Below, piece by piece: positions 21,949-64,000 of a stretch of DNA of 64,000 nucleotides. A program made the translations under genes and the position numbers. The stretch's first letter is position 1. Each line of letters starts with the position of its first letter. The notes under the pieces were generated by a model that saw only the letters and a list, made by a program, of their open reading frames with translations, was not told the origin of the DNA and did not search any database. The stretch is from Candidatus Bathyarchaeota archaeon (GTDB lineage Archaea; Thermoproteota; Bathyarchaeia; Bathyarchaeales; Bathyarchaeaceae). Where the stretch lies: positions 1 to 64,000 of the forward strand of contig CAVOMX010000006.1 in assembly GCA_963697165.1 (NCBI GenBank), written 5' to 3'.

Positions 21949-22026
21949 TGTGATATCACCCGCGGTTCTTCCGCAAAACTTCCCCTTTTTTTAAGGGCTA
22001 AAATTGAACCCCAAACCCAAACCCAA
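21949..22026 (+). repeat. Composite repeat: family 2 motif + family 1 palindrome + CCCAAA tail
   Basis: TGTGATATCACC..CCGCAAAACTTCCCCTTTTTTT-AA-GGGCTAAAATTGAACCC-CAAACCCAAACCCAA. Confidence 0.75.
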
Positions 22027-55396: not shown

Positions 55397-56447
55397 ATGC
55401 GAGGTTTCAGGGATCGCGATTTTATTCAAACCAGCGAAGGACTCTTTTTTTGTGTAGTTGGGCCACTACATCCGCCGAAGCGGGTCATCTCCTACATTAA
55501 GTACGTTCCATCAGAGTCCGGAGTTTGGGGAAGCGGAGAAAACAAATTCAGCAGAATATTACAGAAATACACGATTCCTAATCTGTTGGAAACATTCAAT
55601 TTTCTTGAGCAAAACTATCCGTATTACCTGTTCCATTCTCCTGTATACAACATAACTATAACCGCTGTTCCTTACGAATGCATAAAGGAGACATTTCAAG
55701 CCAGAACAAAAGTTGGCTCAACTGAGGCAGGCTCAGCAACTGGATTCGTTACAAGAGAAGCTGATCCGTTTCACAATGTTTTTAGAGGAAATAAGTGGTG
55801 TTCCCGCAGCGTCTTTTGGTGTGACAGGTTCTCTTCTTCTTGATATTCATCAACCAGTATTTTCGGACCTTGACATAACGGTGTATGGCGTAGATGACAG
55901 TTGGACTCTGCATAAAGCATTGACTGAAAATCGAGGTTCTGACTTGCCCATGAAACGTCTCAAAGGAAAATCTCTGGAAGACTGGTGCCTCAAGAAGGCT
56001 GAGCAGTATCCGTTGTCTCCCGCGGAAGCATCAAAAATTTACCATCGGAAGTGGAACCTAGGAGTTTTTGAAGACCGCTGGGTTTCTATACATCCTGTTT
56101 ATCTTGAAAGCAATGTTACAGAAGAATACGACCAAAATTCTTACATTCCGTGTGATCAAGTAACAATACAAGCTGTTATAGGCGACAATACAGGTTCCCT
56201 TTTTCTTCCCGCGACATATAAGATTGAAGACGTGAAGTTTCTGGTTGGTCAGCATTTAGATAATGTTACTGAGGTGGTTTCTTACGAGAGCCTCTATGAT
56301 AGTCTAGCTGAAAACGGCGAAACCATCCAAGCTAAAGGCAAACTTGAGAACGTGTCATTGAAAAAGGAACCAAACTAGAGCATTACCGTGTTCTGATAGG
56401 TTCAGCCTGAAGGCAAAGGCAAGGAATACATAAAATTGGTGGATTAA
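55397..56447 (+). CDS. Third COG1665-like nucleotidyltransferase (frameshifted)
   Basis: FRDRDFIQT.EGLFFCVVG..HP..YIKY; GVTGSLLL..SDLDI.VYG. Confidence 0.78.
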
Positions 56448-56461
56448 CCAAAAAAGGGTGG

Positions 56462-57361
56462 TTACTCCAGATTCAACACTTCTTTTAGATTTGCTTTAAA
56501 CGGACCAAGCTTGCCTCCGTAGTTACCAGCAGTAATCTTTATGACTCCAGGAACTTTGATTGCAGCCTGTATTCCTTCACCCATAGCAGCTTTCACAACT
56601 TTCTGGTTCAAACCATTTATTACAATCTCGTAGACGCTATTAACACCGTCTGGAACCATAGAGTCAGACACCAATTTCTTGATGGTTGGACAATATTGAT
56701 GGCTTGTAGATGCAGGAAGCTTATAGTTAAGAGATCCAATTTTCGATCCTGCCCTGCATAGACCGCCGGGGAAGGGCATAATTACTCCCCGAACATTCTT
56801 ACTGATGGCTTCTTTAGCGTCTTCCGATGCCTTTAGAGCAACCTCCCAGTCTTTTGCTAATATAAGCATGTTTCCACTGGCAACTGCTTTCATGATTCCG
56901 AAGGTATCTTCAACTATGAATTCGCCTTCCATAACTGGTATTCGCCAAACTTTCCTTCCAGCAACCTCGTCACTTTTCTGGAAGCCGTCTCCGAATAGGC
57001 GTAGGCTTCTGCCAATTTTGACTCTTCTTTTTGCTTTGGGTAACGCGTCGAAGGCTGCTGTTGTTGGGCAGGTCATGATGCATTGTCCGATTCTTAAACT
57101 CATTTGGTGCTTGAGATCGCCTCTTGAGCTGTGGTAGATTTGAATGATGGCTCCTGGACGTCCGTCTGGAGTTTCTTTTGGAGATACAAGTCCTTCTACT
57201 GATGCCTCTGCTGGTGACATGATGATGGATGAAGCGAAGCCTGATGCGGTTCTTGCTGCGATTAATGCCCATTTTTCATTGGCAGCAGTTATCAGTATTC
57301 GACCTGCCCACATTGGAAACATTTCGGCGAATGTATCCTCTATGGTGCAGAATGTTTCCAT
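56462..57361 (-). CDS. ftr: Formylmethanofuran--tetrahydromethanopterin N-formyltransferase
   Basis: IEDTFAEMF, ETPDGRPG, RIGQCIMTCPTT, FGDG, PVMEGEF, PFPGG, GSKIGS, AGNYGGKLG. Confidence 0.95.
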   Translation of the reverse strand: METFCTIEDTFAEMFPMWAGRILITAANEKWALIAARTASGFASSIIMSPAEASVEGLVSPKETPDGRPGAIIQIYHSSRGDLKHQMSLRIGQCIMTCPTTAAFDALPKAKRRVKIGRSLRLFGDGFQKSDEVAGRKVWRIPVMEGEFIVEDTFGIMKAVASGNMLILAKDWEVALKASEDAKEAISKNVRGVIMPFPGGLCRAGSKIGSLNYKLPASTSHQYCPTIKKLVSDSMVPDGVNSVYEIVINGLNQKVVKAAMGEGIQAAIKVPGVIKITAGNYGGKLGPFKANLKEVLNLE

Positions 57362-57414
57362 TCTCGGTTTTAACTATGAAGTCTCCGTTATCTTCTCTTT
57401 TGATAACTTCGAGT

Positions 57415-58578
57415 TTACTTTCTTTTTCTGAAGATTTTGATTCCGTCTCTTTCTGTGACATACTCGAAACCTGCCATTAACAACTCTTCGTCTTGTTTTA
57501 AACTTTTAGATGTTGCGGTGTGATACTCGTCACTCTCAAAGTTCACAAAATGGGTGTAAATAAGTGTAGATGTTATGTTCCTGTGTCCAAGTCTCTCTTT
57601 AACATGAAGAATGTTTTTTGTTTTGAAGTATTCCAATGAACCATAGAGATGTCGAAGAGTGTGAAAGGTGATTTTGTCTATTCGGGGATTCTGTAGTTTA
57701 TTGGCTACATGTTTTCGTTGTTGCCTGAAGTTTTTTCTGAAATGTTTTAGTTGAGTATTTCCGAATATTTTCTCTCCTGTTTTCGGTAGCATATTAAGCA
57801 TTGAAATTAGTTTGCCTGATATCTTGAATTGACGTGGTAAACCATTTTTTTCAGGTTTGTTGATTGTTAGGATTCCTTTCTCCTGGTCAAAATCTATCCA
57901 TGTTAATTGCCATGCTTCTCCATACCTGCAACCTGTCTCGTTCAATAATTGAATGAATGTCGCAACTTTCCGACTACAACCGCCAATTAATGCCTCGATT
58001 TCTTTTGTTTGTGGTAGCCACGGTAATTTTTCTTGTTTTTTCCCCATGTTTCAAAGTTGATTTGTTCAGAAATCTGTATGTTACATATTTGGCAAAATGA
58101 TTTGTAAGCAATTGCAGAGTTTTTTTTAGCTCCATCAGTCCAGTTCTTTTCTGTTACTGTTCTGGTTTTATGGCTGAATTTTTTGGCCTTGTTAATAATG
58201 TGAAAGACACTTTCAGGGTTTGTTAAGGTTGCTCCACGTTTTTGCAGTAACTTCAACACGTTTACTCGGTTTATGATTGTTTTAGGTTTCAGTCCTTTAA
58301 GAATCAGTTTTGCTTCATAGTTTACTAAATGTCCTTTTGTGGTCGATTCTCCCGCAGTCTGTTTTTCGTTTTGTTTTGACTGCGTCCAAGTTTTTCACTC
58401 TCTCTGTTTCGAGAGCGCATATTTGGCGACCACGTGTTATCTGGTAGTCTTTATAATATTTTTCATTGAAACGATAACCACAGCTTCGACAAAGATATCT
58501 TTGAAACACCTTGCCCTGAACGTAACGTAGACCATCTTTCCAAATCATAGAGTTGGTACATTCAGGACAAACCAGCAT
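57415..58578 (-). CDS. Tyrosine recombinase/integrase with N-terminal Zn ribbon (two frameshifts)
   Basis: CPEC..KDG.R..QRYLCRSCGYRF; catalytic GCRYGE, K, HTLRH, LGH, TLIY; frame breaks near 58330 and 58045. Confidence 0.88.
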
Positions 58579-59060
58579 TATTGCTGGGTCTCCTTGCCTT
58601 TTTTTCGTTCAGATTTATATTTCTCTACGCATGGTTGGCACGCTAGCTTGCCATCTATTATTGAAAGATTCTTCAATAAAATTGGTTTATTACAGATAAA
58701 ACAAACTTGGATATGCCCTGTTTCGTTTCCCGTTTGTTCAGGGAGAAGTTTATTTGGCTTATTTTTCGATTCTGATGACGTTTCTTTGCTCTGTTTGAGG
58801 ATTCTCACGTTCTCATAAGGGTATAGAAATGCTTTCTTTTTTACAACTACTCTCGGTTTTCCTTCATGGATAATAATGTCAATTTCGTTACCGGTAATTG
58901 GGTCAATAAAAGAGCCCTCTATAGGGTAGCGAGAAAGTGAGAAGTTAGTAATAACGCCTAATACTTGCTCTATTTGCTTTTCCGCATCTTCTACATTTCC
59001 CCCTTCAGAAACAAGAAGTGTTTTAGGCGTATTTTCCGTTGTATAAAAAACATAAGACAA
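58578..59060 (-). CDS. Hypothetical element protein with C-terminal CxxC..CxxC finger
   Basis: CFICNKP..CQPC; stop overlaps the integrase start; upstream frame interrupted by a TAA. Confidence 0.55.
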   Translation of the reverse strand: MSYVFYTTENTPKTLLVSEGGNVEDAEKQIEQVLGVITNFSLSRYPIEGSFIDPITGNEIDIIIHEGKPRVVVKKKAFLYPYENVRILKQSKETSSESKNKPNKLLPEQTGNETGHIQVCFICNKPILLKNLSIIDGKLACQPCVEKYKSERKKGKETQQ

Positions 59061-59481
59061 AAATTAACAATAATGTTTTCGATTTAATTGAGAACAAGGA
59101 TGTTGTGTTACACCATCGGGGAAAAGATTTGAACAAAGCAAAACGAAGTATGACTTCTTATTCTTAGAAGCTACACAACTATATTCTGTCTTTTTTCTGA
59201 ATTCGGGTATTGTATTCTTTATGTTTTCTGTCATTGTCTCGTTTTTGTATTTGTGTATTCTTCTGTTTTCTAACTGCCTGTATACAAGAATTACCTAGGT
59301 AAAACTCTCTGTCTTTTGTATGTGTTCTGTTATGTCAAATTGTCTTGTCTGTTTTCGTGAGTGTCTACTTTTTGTCTGTTTCTATTCTGTAGGTTTGTCC
59401 ATTTTCTTGTTTTTCTAAAATAAATGTAATATAGTGTCGGATGTGTTAGATAAATAGCCTCAGGATCGGAGACCATGTAAC

Positions 59482-60477
59482 TTGAGTAATCTTAGATGTT
59501 TTATTAGTTATTCTTGGGATCACCAAAAACACAAAGATTGGGTTAGATTATTAGCAGAAGAATTAAGAAAAAACGGCGTAGATGCAAAATTAGATCAATG
59601 GGATTGCCAGCTCGGAATGGATTTGGCAAATTACATGGAAACTGGCATACGGGAATCCGATTTTGTTCTTTTGATATGTATCCCCATTTTTTGTGAGAAA
59701 GCTAATTCTGGAACGGGTGGGGTTGGATATGAGAAATGTATTGTTACAGGTGAAATATTTCAGGGAACTGACCCTAGGAAGTTTATCCCAATTCTCCGTG
59801 AAGGTACTCCAAAAGAATCCATGCCATCATACCTTAAATCAAAAGTTTACATAGATTTTCGAAACGATGGAGAATTTGATTCAAATTTGGAAGATTTATT
59901 GAGACCGATTTATAAAAGTCCCAAATATGTTAGACCTCCACTTGGATTTAAACCACCTTTTAGTAATGATTCCCAACAATCTGGAATCAGTGGGAAAAAA
60001 GTTAAGATTTGGGATTTTAGAACATACCGACTAGTTTATGATTATGCTATTAGTTATTTTGGAATGAAGTTACTTCCAGAACAAGCAAGAGAGTTTGCCG
60101 ACGAATGGATGTTCAAACACTCGGATAGAAATTTTGAGGACTACAAACAGGTCTACGAGTATGCTGTCAGTTTTATTGGAATGAAATTACTTCCTTCAGC
60201 TGCGAGATTGTTTGCTGATAAATGGATGACTGAATACGCGGATAGAAATTTTGATGGCTACAAACAGGTCTACGAGTATGCTGTTGGCTATTTTGGAATG
60301 AAGTTACTTCCAGAACAAGCAAGAGAGTTTGCTGACGAATGGATGTTCAAATATTCCAAGACAGATTTTGGTAATTTAAAACAGATCTACGAGTATGCTG
60401 TCAGTTCTATTGGAATGAAATTACTACCTTCAGATGCAAAAGAATTTGCTTTGGAAAAAATTAAAGAACAGATTTAA
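59482..60477 (+). CDS. TIR/SEFIR domain protein with four 39-aa C-terminal repeats
   Basis: CFISYSWD..HKDWV..LA..L..NGVD..LDQW, GVGYE, FIPILR, YIDF; YxxVYEYAV..GMKLLP repeats. Confidence 0.87.
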   Translation: MSNLRCFISYSWDHQKHKDWVRLLAEELRKNGVDAKLDQWDCQLGMDLANYMETGIRESDFVLLICIPIFCEKANSGTGGVGYEKCIVTGEIFQGTDPRKFIPILREGTPKESMPSYLKSKVYIDFRNDGEFDSNLEDLLRPIYKSPKYVRPPLGFKPPFSNDSQQSGISGKKVKIWDFRTYRLVYDYAISYFGMKLLPEQAREFADEWMFKHSDRNFEDYKQVYEYAVSFIGMKLLPSAARLFADKWMTEYADRNFDGYKQVYEYAVGYFGMKLLPEQAREFADEWMFKYSKTDFGNLKQIYEYAVSSIGMKLLPSDAKEFALEKIKEQI

Positions 60478-60596
60478 GCAGTCCAAGATACTTTTTTTCT
60501 TCCTCATTTTGTTCCACCCAAAATTACCTAGGTAAAAAGCTAGTCAACAACAAAATTACCTATGTAAAGTTCCAAACGATTAGGGAATACTATAAA

Positions 60597-60613
60597 AAGT
60601 TAAAATTTAACCC
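60597..60613. repeat. Palindrome family 1
   Basis: AAGTTAAAATTTAACCC. Confidence 0.75.
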
Positions 60614-60762
60614 GTAATTAAAAAAATTAAATGGTTTAGTTATTAAATTACGATTAATTGTATATCCGTACATTCATTCTTGATTAGAGAAATGAAAAAA
60701 ACTGTATACAGGGACTATACTATGTAAAGAAACTTGAAAGGCTAACATGGAGGTTTAAAGAA

Positions 60763-60975
60763 TTGGGTTTATGGCAAAAAATAATTCAACGAATTAGACG
60801 TAGATTATTGCTCCCAGGAGAAAATTGGGGAAATAAAAAACATGGAGAATGCTTCAACTTTGATAATGGAACATGTCTAATCATACCAAGGGCATTTAAA
60901 AGAAGAAATTTGGACCCAAAATGGCCAGCATGCCCCCATTTCAAAGCAAAAAATAATCAAAGGAACAATATCTGA
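60763..60975 (+). CDS. Small basic Cys/His protein
   Basis: GGAGG RBS; HGEC.....GTC...ACPHF. Confidence 0.55.
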   Translation: MGLWQKIIQRIRRRLLLPGENWGNKKHGECFNFDNGTCLIIPRAFKRRNLDPKWPACPHFKAKNNQRNNI

Positions 60976-61016
60976 AATGTTGTAGAATAAAATTTCAACT
61001 TAGGACTTATCGGTTT

Positions 61017-61068
61017 GGGTTAAAATTTTAACCTTTAGAAAAAAAGTGGACTTGTGGGAGATATCACC
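61017..61068 (-). repeat. Composite repeat: family 1 palindrome + family 2
   Basis: GGGTTAAAATTTTAACC-TTTAG-AAAAAAAGTGGACTTGTG-GGAGATATCACC. Confidence 0.75.
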
Positions 61069-61278
61069 ACTGGGGTGAGAATCCATGCTAGACCATGACC
61101 CAATATGTTCTGTCTTTCTTATTTGAATAGCTTTCAAAATTTAAAAAAAGGAGGAGTTGCGGGATTTAGTGGCGATGTCTCCAACCATTAAGGGAATGGC
61201 TGTTACCTAAACGGTGGACACATGACCACTTGGTTTTTTGCAAAACCCCCCCTTTTTTTGGAATAGGCAATTTACTAA

Positions 61279-61662
61279 CATAAGAATGCTAAATGTATAT
61301 TTAACTAACTAAACTGACTGACAACCAGCTTAGTCAAAGTAGATAAATATTCTTTTTATTACATGTTTATAGTTGAAAGGTGGGGAAGAAAGAATGACGT
61401 TTCTTATTTGGTTTTTTAACAAAAATCATAAACATCATCATTCTGCAATGATCATCTATTGTTTTTTGTTTGGATTAAGTATGATATTTATTGGTATTGT
61501 TGGAATTAGTATTTCTGAAATTCTTGCACTTACTTGTTTTATTCTAAGCGGTGTGTCTTTTGTTTCTGGATTTTATTATATCATAGATAAGAAAAGGAAA
61601 AAAACAGTTAAGAAAATGTCCAGTAATAGCTCATAAGAATGGTAAATGTATATTTAACTAAC
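61279..61662 (+). repeat. 31-bp direct repeat flanking a small membrane gene
   Basis: CATAAGAATGSTAAATGTATATTTAACTAAC at 61279-61309 and 61632-61662 (30/31). Confidence 0.85.
61394..61636 (+). CDS. Small two-TM membrane protein with His cluster
   Basis: NHKHHHS followed by two hydrophobic helices and a basic tail. Confidence 0.55.
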   Translation: MTFLIWFFNKNHKHHHSAMIIYCFLFGLSMIFIGIVGISISEILALTCFILSGVSFVSGFYYIIDKKRKKTVKKMSSNSS

Positions 61663-61696
61663 CAGTCTCTTCATGGAATGGCTGTTCTCTTAAGGA

Positions 61697-61756
61697 GGGT
61701 GATATCACCCCGTCCATTTCGCAAAACTCCCCTTTTTTCAAGGGTTAATATTTATC
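61697..61756 (+). repeat. Composite repeat: family 2 + degenerate family 1
   Basis: GGGTGATATCACCC..CGCAAAACTCCCCTTTTTT-CAA-GGGTTAATATTTATC. Confidence 0.75.
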
Positions 61757-61798
61757 TTTCTAGATATACATTCCATAATTGCCAAGGATTGAAGATCT

Positions 61799-62284
61799 AT
61801 GTTTAATAAGATACTTGTTCCTTTAGATTGTTCCAAATATGCAGAAACTTCTTTGAAAGTAGCGATTGAGATAGCTAAGAAATTTAAGAAAGTAGCGATT
61901 GAGATAGCTAAGAAATTTAATAGTAGTCTTTCTTTAGTGCATGTTGTTTCATCTCGTAAAGAGTATTGTAGATCTGGGATTACTGGAAAACTTAGAGTCA
62001 AATGTAACTTAGACGAAGTTACTGACAAAGACATCCCAAAGATTTGTAATGCACTTTTAGATACAAGTAAAAATACAGTTATTGCTGAAGGAGTTTCAGT
62101 AAATACAATACTGAAAGAAGGTAAAGTTGTAGAAGAGATACTGAATACGATTAAGGAAGGAAAATTCGATTTAGTTGTAATGGGTTCTAGAGGTCAGGGT
62201 TTGATAAAAAAAATATTCTTAGGGAGTGTTAGTGAAGGAGTTAGTAAAGAAGCTATATGTCCGGTTTTATTGACAAGAAATTAA
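61799..62284 (+). CDS. Universal stress protein (UspA family)
   Basis: MFNKILVPLD.S, LVHV, DLVVMGSRG..LGSVS..CPVL; 33-bp tandem duplication. Confidence 0.9.
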   Translation: MFNKILVPLDCSKYAETSLKVAIEIAKKFKKVAIEIAKKFNSSLSLVHVVSSRKEYCRSGITGKLRVKCNLDEVTDKDIPKICNALLDTSKNTVIAEGVSVNTILKEGKVVEEILNTIKEGKFDLVVMGSRGQGLIKKIFLGSVSEGVSKEAICPVLLTRN

Positions 62285-62312
62285 GGTTTACAAGAATATT
62301 CACAGCAAAGAT

Positions 62313-62373
62313 TGTGACGTCGCCCCGGGCTTTCCTGCAAAACTTCTTTTTTCAAAGATTAAAATGTAATCCC
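62313..62373 (+). repeat. Composite repeat: family 2 + degenerate family 1
   Basis: TGTGACGTCGCC..TGCAAAACTTCTTTTTT-CAA-AGATTAAAATGTAATCCC. Confidence 0.65.
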
Positions 62374-62410
62374 AAAAATATTTAAGAATTTAAAATTAAA
62401 GATAGCAAAT

Positions 62411-62635
62411 ATGAAAACAGTATATTTGAAGGTCTTAGGTTATGTTGGCGAAATTCTGGGTAATTTTATAATAATAGCAGGATTTTTTCTAATGTTCAAT
62501 GATCCAAGCCAAGAATATAGATCGCTTGAAATTGTTTTGTTTTCGGTTGGTGCAATTCTATTGGGAATAGGACTAATTAGTTATATATTATTCCGCAACA
62601 AAACTACGGGAATTATGTTCCAGAAGGCATGTTGA
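62411..62635 (+). CDS. Small two-TM membrane protein
   Basis: Two hydrophobic helices. Confidence 0.55.
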   Translation: MKTVYLKVLGYVGEILGNFIIIAGFFLMFNDPSQEYRSLEIVLFSVGAILLGIGLISYILFRNKTTGIMFQKAC

Positions 62636-62759
62636 AACCTACATATTTTATGCTAGTATGCCCTACCTAAACCGATTAAAATTCAAATACGAAAATTAGG
62701 TGAAAAGCAAGACTTCTCTTTTTTAAACCATTTGCCTAAAATTATCTCATTTCAAGCAA

Positions 62760-62993
62760 GGAAAAATTATTGCTGGATTTGAAGGAATGTTTGGCGGAGA
62801 AGTTACTGCCTATAGTTCTGAGGTAGAAAAAGCTAGAAACGAGTCAATGGAAAGATTGATCGAGAACGCCAAAAGTGTAGGTGCAAATGCAGTTGTTCGC
62901 ACAGATTTTGAAACAAGCGATATACTAAACGGAACAGTCACAATATTTTCTGCCTACGGGACAGCGGTGATTATTAATCCTCTTAAAAAGTAG
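62760..62993 (+). pseudogene. 5'-truncated YbjQ/UPF0145 family gene
   Basis: GKIIAGFEGMFGGEVTAY..AR..GANAVV..SAYGTAV; the N-terminal strands of YbjQ are missing. Confidence 0.7.
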
Positions 62994-63023
62994 GCTTAAT
63001 CAGAGATAATAAAATTCAGCAAA

Positions 63024-63170
63024 TTAAAAAAAGGGAATTTTTGCGGGAGATGTCTCCACTATGGGGAACATTTCAGCGAATGTATCCTCTATTCTTACTG
63101 GGTCTTGTTTTCCGGGTACTTTTACAATGAAATCGTTATCTTCTTTTTTAATAACTTCAAGAGATGCCAT
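63024..63170 (-). pseudogene. Displaced 5' fragment of ftr
   Basis: MASLEVIKKEDNDFIVKVPGKQDPVRIEDTFAEMFP, then runs into the element end; RBS-like and TATA-like elements upstream. Confidence 0.8.
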
Positions 63171-63293
63171 TATCTTTTACTCCATTAACTCTATCTTCTT
63201 CCACTCTGGGAATTATCTGAGCGTGATTTGAGAAGTTCTCATCTTTATTTATACTTTTAGTTGTTGCGGTGTTGGTTTAATTGTACTGTTATG

Positions 63294-64000
63294 TTAACTA
63301 ATCTGTAATGTGTCAATAGGTGTTTTGAGGCGCTTTGGTTTGTCGGAGATTTTATTGATAAAACGTGTTTCAAAGAGGTATATGATAGATAGGTAGGCAA
63401 ACATCCAGGCAATGAAAAAGAATTCTCCATAAAACTCGTGAAACAATTTAGCTGGTGAGTCTCCACCATGAATTCCTAATACATAAATCGTTACTATTCT
63501 GAGGATGTTGACGAAAAATGTTCCAGCTGCTCCTACGATAACGTAAATTATTTTTCTGATACGGGATATGCTGGTACCCCTGAGGAACAACATAATCATA
63601 AACGAATACAGGAAGAGGCTGTGGCTTCCAGCACAAGACCATGCCACATAAGCTGAATAGCTATTGATTCCGTTAGATGCATAGAGACCCAGAGTGTTGT
63701 CGATTCCCGAGAATGTACGAGTCGCGTAGCCCAACAGATTCAGGATAAACTCTGCTCCTGATGCTGTAATGGGAACAAGGGACTGCAAAACAGTGAATGT
63801 GCCATTGGGATAGAATGTGTCAATCATGTAAAAGATTCCTACGCCTCCTATAAAAAAGGAGGAGACAGAGAATATCTTCAGTCCCTGACCTCCATACAGA
63901 AGCCAAATTGATGCCACAAAAAATACTGCAAAGAGAATATACTCAAGGGAGAAAGGCCAAGAATGAGTCAAATACCATGTATCTCCATCTATAATGGGTA
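63294..64000 (-). CDS. Archaeosortase/exosortase family protein (partial, runs off the window)
   Basis: WSCAG..S catalytic Cys, NILRI Arg, FH His; multi-TM. Confidence 0.85.
   Translation of the reverse strand, partial: PIIDGDTWYLTHSWPFSLEYILFAVFFVASIWLLYGGQGLKIFSVSSFFIGGVGIFYMIDTFYPNGTFTVLQSLVPITASGAEFILNLLGYATRTFSGIDNTLGLYASNGINSYSAYVAWSCAGSHSLFLYSFMIMLFLRGTSISRIRKIIYVIVGAAGTFFVNILRIVTIYVLGIHGGDSPAKLFHEFYGEFFFIAWMFAYLSIIYLFETRFINKISDKPKRLKTPIDTLQIS

Follow-up and report, generated by a model that had tools for sequence, protein, structure and literature searches.

The window, a 64,000-nucleotide stretch of a Bathyarchaeia genome from a sediment archaeon, carries an integrated element of 5.75 kb between two copies of an att core, positioned in the first codons of ftr (Asp-Thr-Phe-Ala-Glu-Met-Phe). 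Direct repeats (attL/attR) with an inverted-arm core are present on both sides of the element. The features of the locus are as follows.

56462..57338, minus strand: body of ftr, the formylmethanofuran:H4MPT formyltransferase gene of the host, downstream of the att core (Pfam FTR/FTR_C)
57315..57338, minus strand: att core on the ftr side, in the D-T-F-A-E-M-F codons, with imperfect 9-bp inverted arms and a 6-bp spacer (from sequence)
57339..57461, minus strand: element-supplied 5′ coding region of ftr, with start ATG at 57461, overlapping the last 15 integrase codons
57347..57350, no strand: one extra base, private to the assembly, which breaks the 57461 frame; missing in contigs of 4/4 runs
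57415..58578, minus strand: tyrosine integrase with an N-terminal zinc ribbon (Pfam Phage_integrase) and two frameshifts, near 58040 and 58350
57495..57519, minus strand: likely BRE-TATA promoter for ftr in integrase codons T-A-T-S-K-S-L (silent-site conservation, match to a tRNA-derived motif, remnant boundary)
58578..59060, minus strand: 160-residue ORF abutting the integrase, with C-terminal Cys pairs; short match in another ftr element
59482..60477, plus strand: cargo, TIR/SEFIR protein with 39-residue C-terminal repeats (Pfam TIR_2, SEFIR; PADLOC bSEFIR, E 5.7e-71)
61187..61741, plus strand: inside the element, two remnants of a different att class flanking a small membrane ORF; the element end motif follows each remnant
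61799..62993, plus strand: cargo, universal stress protein, small membrane ORF and YbjQ-family fragment (Pfam)
63029..63057, minus strand: element end motif, a short palindrome followed by an A-run, a C-run and a T-run, common to many elements of the genome
63063..63170, minus strand: displaced ftr 5′ end of KVP type with an SD-like site; 92% identity to the N-terminus in G003, a relative whose ftr is uninterrupted
63064..63087, minus strand: att core on the distal side, 19/20 bases identical to the ftr-side core
63201..63274, minus strand: displaced promoter and leader, likely the decayed integrase 3′ end of an earlier element (nhmmer and alignment)
63294..64000, minus strand: host exosortase/archaeosortase-family gene bordering the site, which adjoins ftr in relatives with an empty site (Pfam/NCBIfam)

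The ftr body lies above the cut-off for NCBIfam PRK02114 and TIGR03119, shares approximately 50% identity with solved Ftr and belongs with Ftr by family score and fold; the chimeric enzyme with a replaced N-terminus is presumed to be active. The integrase matches Pfam PF00589 with an E-value of 3e-15, the catalytic R-K-H-R-H-Y residues are recognisable in its translation, and its frameshifts were located by three-frame matching to intact relatives. The identities given to Ftr, the integrase and the exosortase-family protein in the original prediction hold in Pfam and NCBIfam. Assignment to the archaeal XerA/dif system was rejected, two intact relatives of the integrase scoring 82.7 and 99.3 bits against a XerA equivalog cut-off of 220. 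The TIR/SEFIR protein is a candidate defence gene, and the 160-residue ORF has no family in Pfam, NCBIfam or PADLOC. Among 14 ORFs scanned with Pfam, one of them unassigned, no virion, replication or conjugation/transfer genes, as a provirus or ICE would have, were identified. The element end motif has 27 loose matches genome-wide and directly follows the integrase in one contig of a viral collection. A motif scan of viral contigs gave no match and an integrase scan only two distant loci.

Both ftr 5′ ends that had been described are present where predicted, and a recount of the blocks they share returned the same 25/26 and 23/25 nt. The RBS-like and TATA-like sites ascribed to the displaced end are likewise present, as an SD-like GGAG at 63180-63183 and a TATA-like sequence at 63246-63261. 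The two 5′-end regions align locally with a score of 144, where 300 shuffles reached at most 47, and the similarity reaches upstream into the displaced promoter (57477-57521 against 63228-63272, 35/45). A single base differs between the two att spacers in the window.

Relatives support integration inside the 5′ end of ftr, by which one start was displaced and another took its place. The expected empty site occurs among them as the archaeosortase-family gene joined to ftr, and an integrase lies directly upstream of ftr at many loci, in several families. Comparison of empty sites and displaced ends suggests where in the att core the crossover would fall. Three further displaced ftr 5′ ends, each of another type, were found (L083, L181, L259); none was found within the stretches examined around ftr in G011, G018, G020 and G024. 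Four sequencing runs contain relatives as contigs and not the strain of the window (shares 0.14-0.20). Contigs of two of these, X1 and X2, carry a junction from 63061 to 57318, as would be expected of a circle or of related elements arrayed in tandem. Metagenome contigs in general may include chimeric joins at the shared core. The empty-site joint is not among the run-contig matches listed.

Where, then, does translation of the replaced gene begin? The original prediction offered the ATG at 57361 or at 57461. For the lineage, the latter is supported. It sits in the +1 frame of integrase Tyr-Val codons, an ATG is found at the equivalent position in 17/17 motif-bearing ftr integrases compared with 9/28 other integrases, and the replacement frame is open in 20 of 21 related elements, the sole exception being that of the window. 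As a start for the lineage, the ATG at 57361 was rejected since it is out of frame in relatives. In a relative's protein the element-supplied N-terminus is predicted to form a three-strand sheet, with the first 13 residues disordered. The exception in the window coincides with the extra base at 57347-57350, which marks the break between the LEVIKR.. and TFCTIED.. frames and so brings the ATG at 57361 into frame. This base is probably an assembly error rather than a mutation of the strain; were it real, translation of ftr would begin at 57361 and give a short N-terminus. Eight of 28 matched genes in the window's genome look frameshifted, whilst the same control in relatives is noisy (0-4 of 10-19 genes). 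With integrase and replacement frame both broken in the assembly, the window's copy of the element may be inactive.

The integrase coding sequence also contains the probable promoter, at 57495..57519. At four-fold sites pairwise identity is 0.875 in the motif, which offers only 4 such sites, against 0.33 upstream (16 sites, maximum 0.57). The motif is the region's best match to one learnt from tRNA upstream regions, although its promoter score of 7.9 bits is not significant alone and an ftr coding control contains an 8.5-bit site. It is absent from non-ftr integrases and in KVP lineages has drifted toward an A/T-richer, TATA-like form. Decayed elements stop shrinking at the motif, which forms their 5′ boundary: 11 of 12 truncated remnants keep it and all 12 breakpoints are different. 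Taken together these patterns point to a motif active as a promoter, with transcription predicted to start near 57474.

Read-through transcription of ftr from the integrase operon had been proposed, an arrangement that would favour retention of the whole element and link it to C1 metabolism. The two genes are co-oriented and overlap, and pTN3-like archaeal integrases express a restored tRNA from the integrase promoter (PMC8371274). However, in many relatives ftr is intact and no more than the final 100-250 nt of the element and its integrase is left, and precise excision would rejoin the displaced end and restore the gene; for these reasons the retention link is unsupported. The evidence instead favours an internal promoter, which persists when the remainder of the integrase gene is lost, and we consider read-through unlikely, though it may apply to the clade of GYIL-type integrases where no such motif was found. 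Alternatively the motif could be an arm-type or accessory-protein site of attP, the fossil having persisted by chance. Any function at the DNA level fits silent-site conservation, and the spacing of about 170 nt between motif and core would be plausible for an arm site. Against this, the motif long outlasts the integrase and marks the deletion boundary, it drifts toward the TATA-like form in KVP lineages and it resembles the motif upstream of host tRNAs. A site serving attP alone is very unlikely, whilst a motif acting both as promoter and as attP site is possible.

The displaced 5′ end was originally taken as the native one. Its leader carries the imprint of an integrase instead: an nhmmer profile built from 12 distant ftr integrases matches 63201..63274 with 23.0 bits and an E-value of 9.2e-5 in a whole-genome search. 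Profile matches of at least 12 bits occur upstream of 17/20 KVP-type ftr genes, 0/22 of short type and 0/15 of AENGN type; these are not independent counts, the KVP fossils deriving from one event and the GPCF fossils from one event. Thirteen of 18 KVP fossils start at profile position 346-349, and the promoter-like motif starts at position 349. The fossil-tail search gave no match in 5/18 KVP and 10/19 untrained GPCF regions. Eight N-terminal types are scattered over the Ftr tree, with 53 label changes among 144 Ftr bodies, and unrelated N-termini occur on near-identical bodies. Solved Ftrs have the short N-terminus only, which is kept in 0/22 genomes of the genus. A CooC-like gene in the same genome follows the same pattern as ftr. 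Since the displaced beginning is likely itself the fossil of an earlier element, ftr seems to have had its front end exchanged repeatedly.

The reverse direction, in which an integrase captured a host promoter and 5′ end of KVP type and nothing was domesticated, would suit the habit of target-restoring elements, which usually copy host sequence, and the absence of the motif from non-ftr integrases. Yet the homologous stretch encodes a GFEYV...FRKRK tail found family-wide, also in integrases at tRNA and other targets, motif-bearing elements occur in hosts whose displaced end is of the short type without the motif (L083), and solved Ftrs are short. This explanation is far-fetched and already largely refuted. 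Misassembly or chance duplication is scarcely credible: the contig does show several 1-nt indels, as well as a 33-nt duplication, that related contigs lack, but both junction types recur in independent genomes and contigs, and X1 and X4 contigs (1608 and 1155 nt) span the distal core into the sortase gene.

We hold with good confidence that the integrated element supplies the N-terminus, start and likely promoter of ftr from inside the 3′ end of its integrase, and that such tails are likely domesticated in series. The order of integration and decay we infer as follows. A tyrosine-integrase element would insert at the inverted-arm att core among the opening codons of ftr, the integrase recombining within the 6-bp spacer, and would give the gene a replacement N-terminus with its start codon and likely promoter in the integrase 3′ end. 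Elements would then likely decay down to the integrase tail, which the host would retain as ftr promoter and 5′ end up to its displacement by a further element. On balance we also favour a broader view, that a Bathyarchaeia family of small integrases targets gene 5′ ends with the target's promoter and start dual-coded in its own 3′ end. Repeated cycles would have left core genes across whole genera, among them ftr, the CooC-like ATPase and perhaps more, with promoters and N-termini that are stacked tail fossils, and mobile elements would thereby have a lasting way of writing the promoters and N-terminal domains of their hosts.

Bathyarchaeia, in which Ftr forms a step of the H4MPT C1 pathway, are abundant in anoxic sediments (PMC10321748). 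If the preferred reading is true, it is mobile-element sequence, turning over within species, that sets the level and regulation of Ftr, and the variability of Ftr N-termini and many of the start-codon calls in Bathyarchaeia genomes are explained. The intact element, the truncated tail and the fixed fossil, which has gained a new SD and start, would provide a dated series for the origin of promoters and overlapping frames. Genetic tools could also make use of the new archaeal att site, which lies in a conserved gene.

How does this arrangement compare with known systems? The literature searched did not yield ftr as an integration site, though a supplementary table listing it may exist; one supplement of PMC8371274 lacks the word ‘formyltransferase’. 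Nor did it yield an archaeal protein target with 5′-end replacement, nesting in the integrase gene or serial domestication. Replacement of 5′ ends by elements is known at bacterial dusA and prfC (PMC8409611). DAI islands and IMEVchUSA3, as here, have a tyrosine integrase, insert in the 5′ end of a housekeeping gene, leave the displaced 5′ end as outer boundary and supply a new N-terminus and promoter, the latter demonstrated for IMEVchUSA3 by lacZ fusion and probable here; a replacement beta strand is predicted for them too (PMC4482086, PMC8409611). They differ in being bacterial, in targeting dusA and in their unrelated integrases, and the sections of these papers that treat them describe no start or promoter nested in the integrase coding sequence, no serial replacement and no fixation of fossil tails. 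Membership of the dusA-associated integrases was rejected as the target is ftr, not dusA/dusB. ICE SXT/R391 at prfC is a large conjugative bacterial element (PMC8409611), whereas the elements here span 4.5-6 kb with no transfer genes found.

Thaumarchaeal elements share with ours an archaeal host, integration into protein genes with the frame restored, short att sites and tandem reuse of a site, but 14/14 cases lie in 3′-distal regions and ftr is not among the targets listed (PMC6563490). Integrases of pTN3-like and SSV type resemble this one in having att near or within the integrase gene, and pTN3-like elements use the 5′ half of a tRNA gene that is then expressed from an element promoter (PMC8371274). 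Those integrases are split on integration (PMC8371274), whereas here the integrase remains whole and the target is a protein gene. A split integrase of SSV1/pTN3 type was accordingly rejected: the att core lies downstream, approximately 80 nt past the integrase stop codon, and intact integrases of 400+ residues adjoin ftr.

Two copies of the ftr 5′ end occur in the window, as the original prediction held and at the coordinates it gave, the displaced copy lying at 63063-63170, and the blocks they share agree at 25/26 and 23/25 nt. Alignment of the two regions scores 144 against a maximum of 47 among 300 shuffles. The GC content between the copies is 30-38%, compared to about 44% in ftr. Each element end carries an att core of imperfect 9-bp inverted arms with a 6-bp spacer, the cores being 5749 nt apart. 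Behind the distal core comes an end motif, a short palindrome then runs of A, C and T; a loose pattern for it matches 27 times across this genome (G000), often behind tRNA fragments. In a viral-collection contig (L256) it comes immediately after an integrase.

Features of the ftr element
57315-57338, att core on the ftr side, in D-T-F-A-E-M-F codons
63064-63087, att core on the distal side, D-T-F-A-E-M-F codons
58578-57415, integrase with a zinc ribbon; two frameshifts relative to intact relatives
Cargo: TIR/SEFIR protein (PADLOC bSEFIR)
Cargo: Usp, YbjQ and small ORFs

No replication, transfer or virion genes were recognised in the element. In the TIR/SEFIR gene region 729 nt (59885-60613) have a 99% identical copy on contig C14, and 60495-60613 recurs on C1 and C9, with very deep coverage in the runs examined. 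The Usp gene contains a perfect 33-nt tandem duplication (61855-61920), missing from contigs of sequencing runs X1, X2 and X4. Remnants of another att class, with 8-bp inverted arms, a 6-bp spacer and the end motif after each, lie at 61187-61260, 61672-61741, 62313-62350 and 21949-21991, and further ones on C8, C16 and C17. A 31-nt repeat (61279, 61632) often stands behind their end motif. They alternate with single cargo genes, resembling a cassette array; no target gene for this class was found among the remnants in the window and on C8, C16 and C17.

The empty site anticipated in relatives is present in genome G003 and at several other loci, where 150-520 nt separate a sortase-family gene from an uninterrupted ftr downstream whose N-terminus resembles the displaced fragment (92% in G003). 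Of the ftr relatives that have names, the nearest carry the labels Candidatus Bathyarchaeum or Bathyarchaeia. Three additional displaced ftr 5′ ends, no two of one type, were found: a short-type end 4520 nt upstream of ftr (L083), one 1338 nt upstream (L181) and one in genome G019 (L259). The junction from 63061 to 57318, seen in relatives' contigs of X1 and X2 with four of 18 runs covered, is of the attP type or element-element. At two G019 loci outside ftr (L257, L261) the end motif accompanies half an att core, possibly marking secondary insertions. That an element has entered ftr and replaced its 5′ end is almost certain.

In solved Ftrs the att core falls at about residues 8-16, with only a few residues ahead of it. 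In the clade of the window's integrase (nine rows, SH-aLRT 94 in a quick tree) 17/17 sequences spell the Tyr-Val of the C-terminal GFEYV motif as TAT-GT, creating an ATG in the +1 frame; this ATG occurs in 9/28 non-ftr integrases. The replacement frame, starting at ATG 57461 in the window, runs uninterrupted into ftr in 20 of the 21 rows scored, three more having escaped the pattern used for scoring. The exception is the window, where one extra base at 57347-57350 breaks the frame. This base is likely an assembly error, judging by its absence from contigs of all four runs and by the many genes that look frameshifted in this genome (8 of 28 matched, versus 0-4 of 10-19 in relatives). A conserved gene downstream of ftr (55397-56378) is also split between two frames here and matches in relatives, likely through another 1-nt indel. 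The structure model of a relative's Ftr matches solved Ftrs; residues 1-13, the overlap, are disordered and residues 17-41 form three strands with pLDDT of about 92. A second ftr paralog (C25:106226-107110, 40% identity) might buffer changes at the ftr locus; most relatives have one.

Within the integrase coding sequence, at 57495-57519, a BRE-TATA-like motif probably serves as an internal promoter of ftr. The codons concerned, T-A-T-S-K-S, are almost invariant at silent sites (four-fold sites score 0.875 over four sites in the motif, versus 0.33 over 16 upstream), and non-ftr integrases lack the motif. It is the top match in both the integrase and the displaced region to a matrix trained on sequence upstream of 40 tRNAs in this genome, at a score not significant by itself. 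The decay pattern is stronger evidence. Of 19 untrained loci of the window's type, each with 700 nt upstream, two are long, 12 are truncated and five give no hit; the 12 breakpoints all differ and 11 of the 12 truncated loci keep the motif. One ftr-adjacent integrase row without it has a later start. The proposed link of element retention to C1 metabolism found no support.

The upstream region of the displaced copy had been regarded as native. It reads instead as the fossil of an integrase tail: a DNA profile built from 12 distant ftr integrases, using their final 138 nt, matches 63274-63201 with 23.0 bits (E 9.2e-5, whole-genome search). With identical duplicates and loci having <260 nt upstream left out, at least 12 bits are reached by 17/20 upstream regions of the KVP N-terminal type, the window's included, by 14/20 of the GPCF type (one being a training row), and by 0/22 short and 0/15 AENGN types. 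At L008 the fossil is collinear with the integrase tail across about 125 nt. In 13/18 KVP fossils the match opens at profile position 346-349, which is where the motif begins; the KVP fossils have also acquired an SD as well as a later start. The transfer ran from integrase to host, because the fossil spans the GFEYV...FRKRK tail common to the integrase family and the short type is the one seen in solved Ftrs from methanogens and Archaeoglobus. The ftr 5′ end is visible in 22 of the genus's 25 genomes; read by eye, the types there are KVP (14), the window's (5), GYIL (3) and short (0). In a FastTree built from 144 Ftr bodies, placing the eight N-terminal types takes 53 changes, against a minimum of 7 and a mean of 98 after shuffling; the sample consists of the best hits to the window's ftr and does not represent the class at random, and kin in it are not independent. 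Unrelated N-termini sit on near-identical bodies in two pairs of loci (L114/L116 and L121/L123), and at least two further integrase clades adjoin ftr on its upstream side. Serial replacement of the ftr 5′ end is very probable.

The pattern recurs at a second gene. At C20:7104-9075 (L262) an integrase overlaps the beginning of a gene for a P-loop ATPase, which we take to be CooC-like from its Cys motif; NCBIfam gave MinD/NifH-superfamily hits alone, all below cut-off. The displaced 5′ end of this gene, with end motif, lies at C18:120779-120960 (L263) and is a decayed integrase tail in its own right. A general integrase-tail profile, the C20 integrase being among its sequences, scores at least 20 bits at seven CooC-like loci besides G000's own among 29 relatives' loci read, and many more such loci show a short remnant by eye; integrase tails stand ahead of this gene in numerous genomes of the genus. 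On C17 (82197-88240, L264) a 23-nt repeat at a gene's start codon bounds an integrase element of 6 kb, inside which lie an ftr-type att core plus end motif (82963) and remnants of other att ends. tRNA fragments with end motifs form arrays on C10 (six, 2351-24757), C24, C22 and C25, which suggests repeated accretion at tRNA sites. Related integrases stop directly ahead of genes at L244, C25:156091 and C1:8097. The first two genes are presumably ERCC4-like and ribosomal-protein-like, as named from translations; the third is a tRNA-Glu 5′ end. Integrases of this family may have a general preference for the 5′ ends of genes.

Our search of the openly accessible literature turned up no account of ftr as an integration target, nor of serial domestication. 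Bathyarchaeia proviruses are treated in PMC11705971, and ftr is absent from the portion of text consulted. As far as the accessible text goes, archaeal elements with protein-gene targets use 3′-distal sites (PMC6563490) and others target tRNA 5′ halves (PMC8371274). From the parts of the sources available, the ftr element works like the dusA-targeting islands (PMC4482086, PMC8409611) and like SXT at prfC (PMC8409611), yet is a member of neither.
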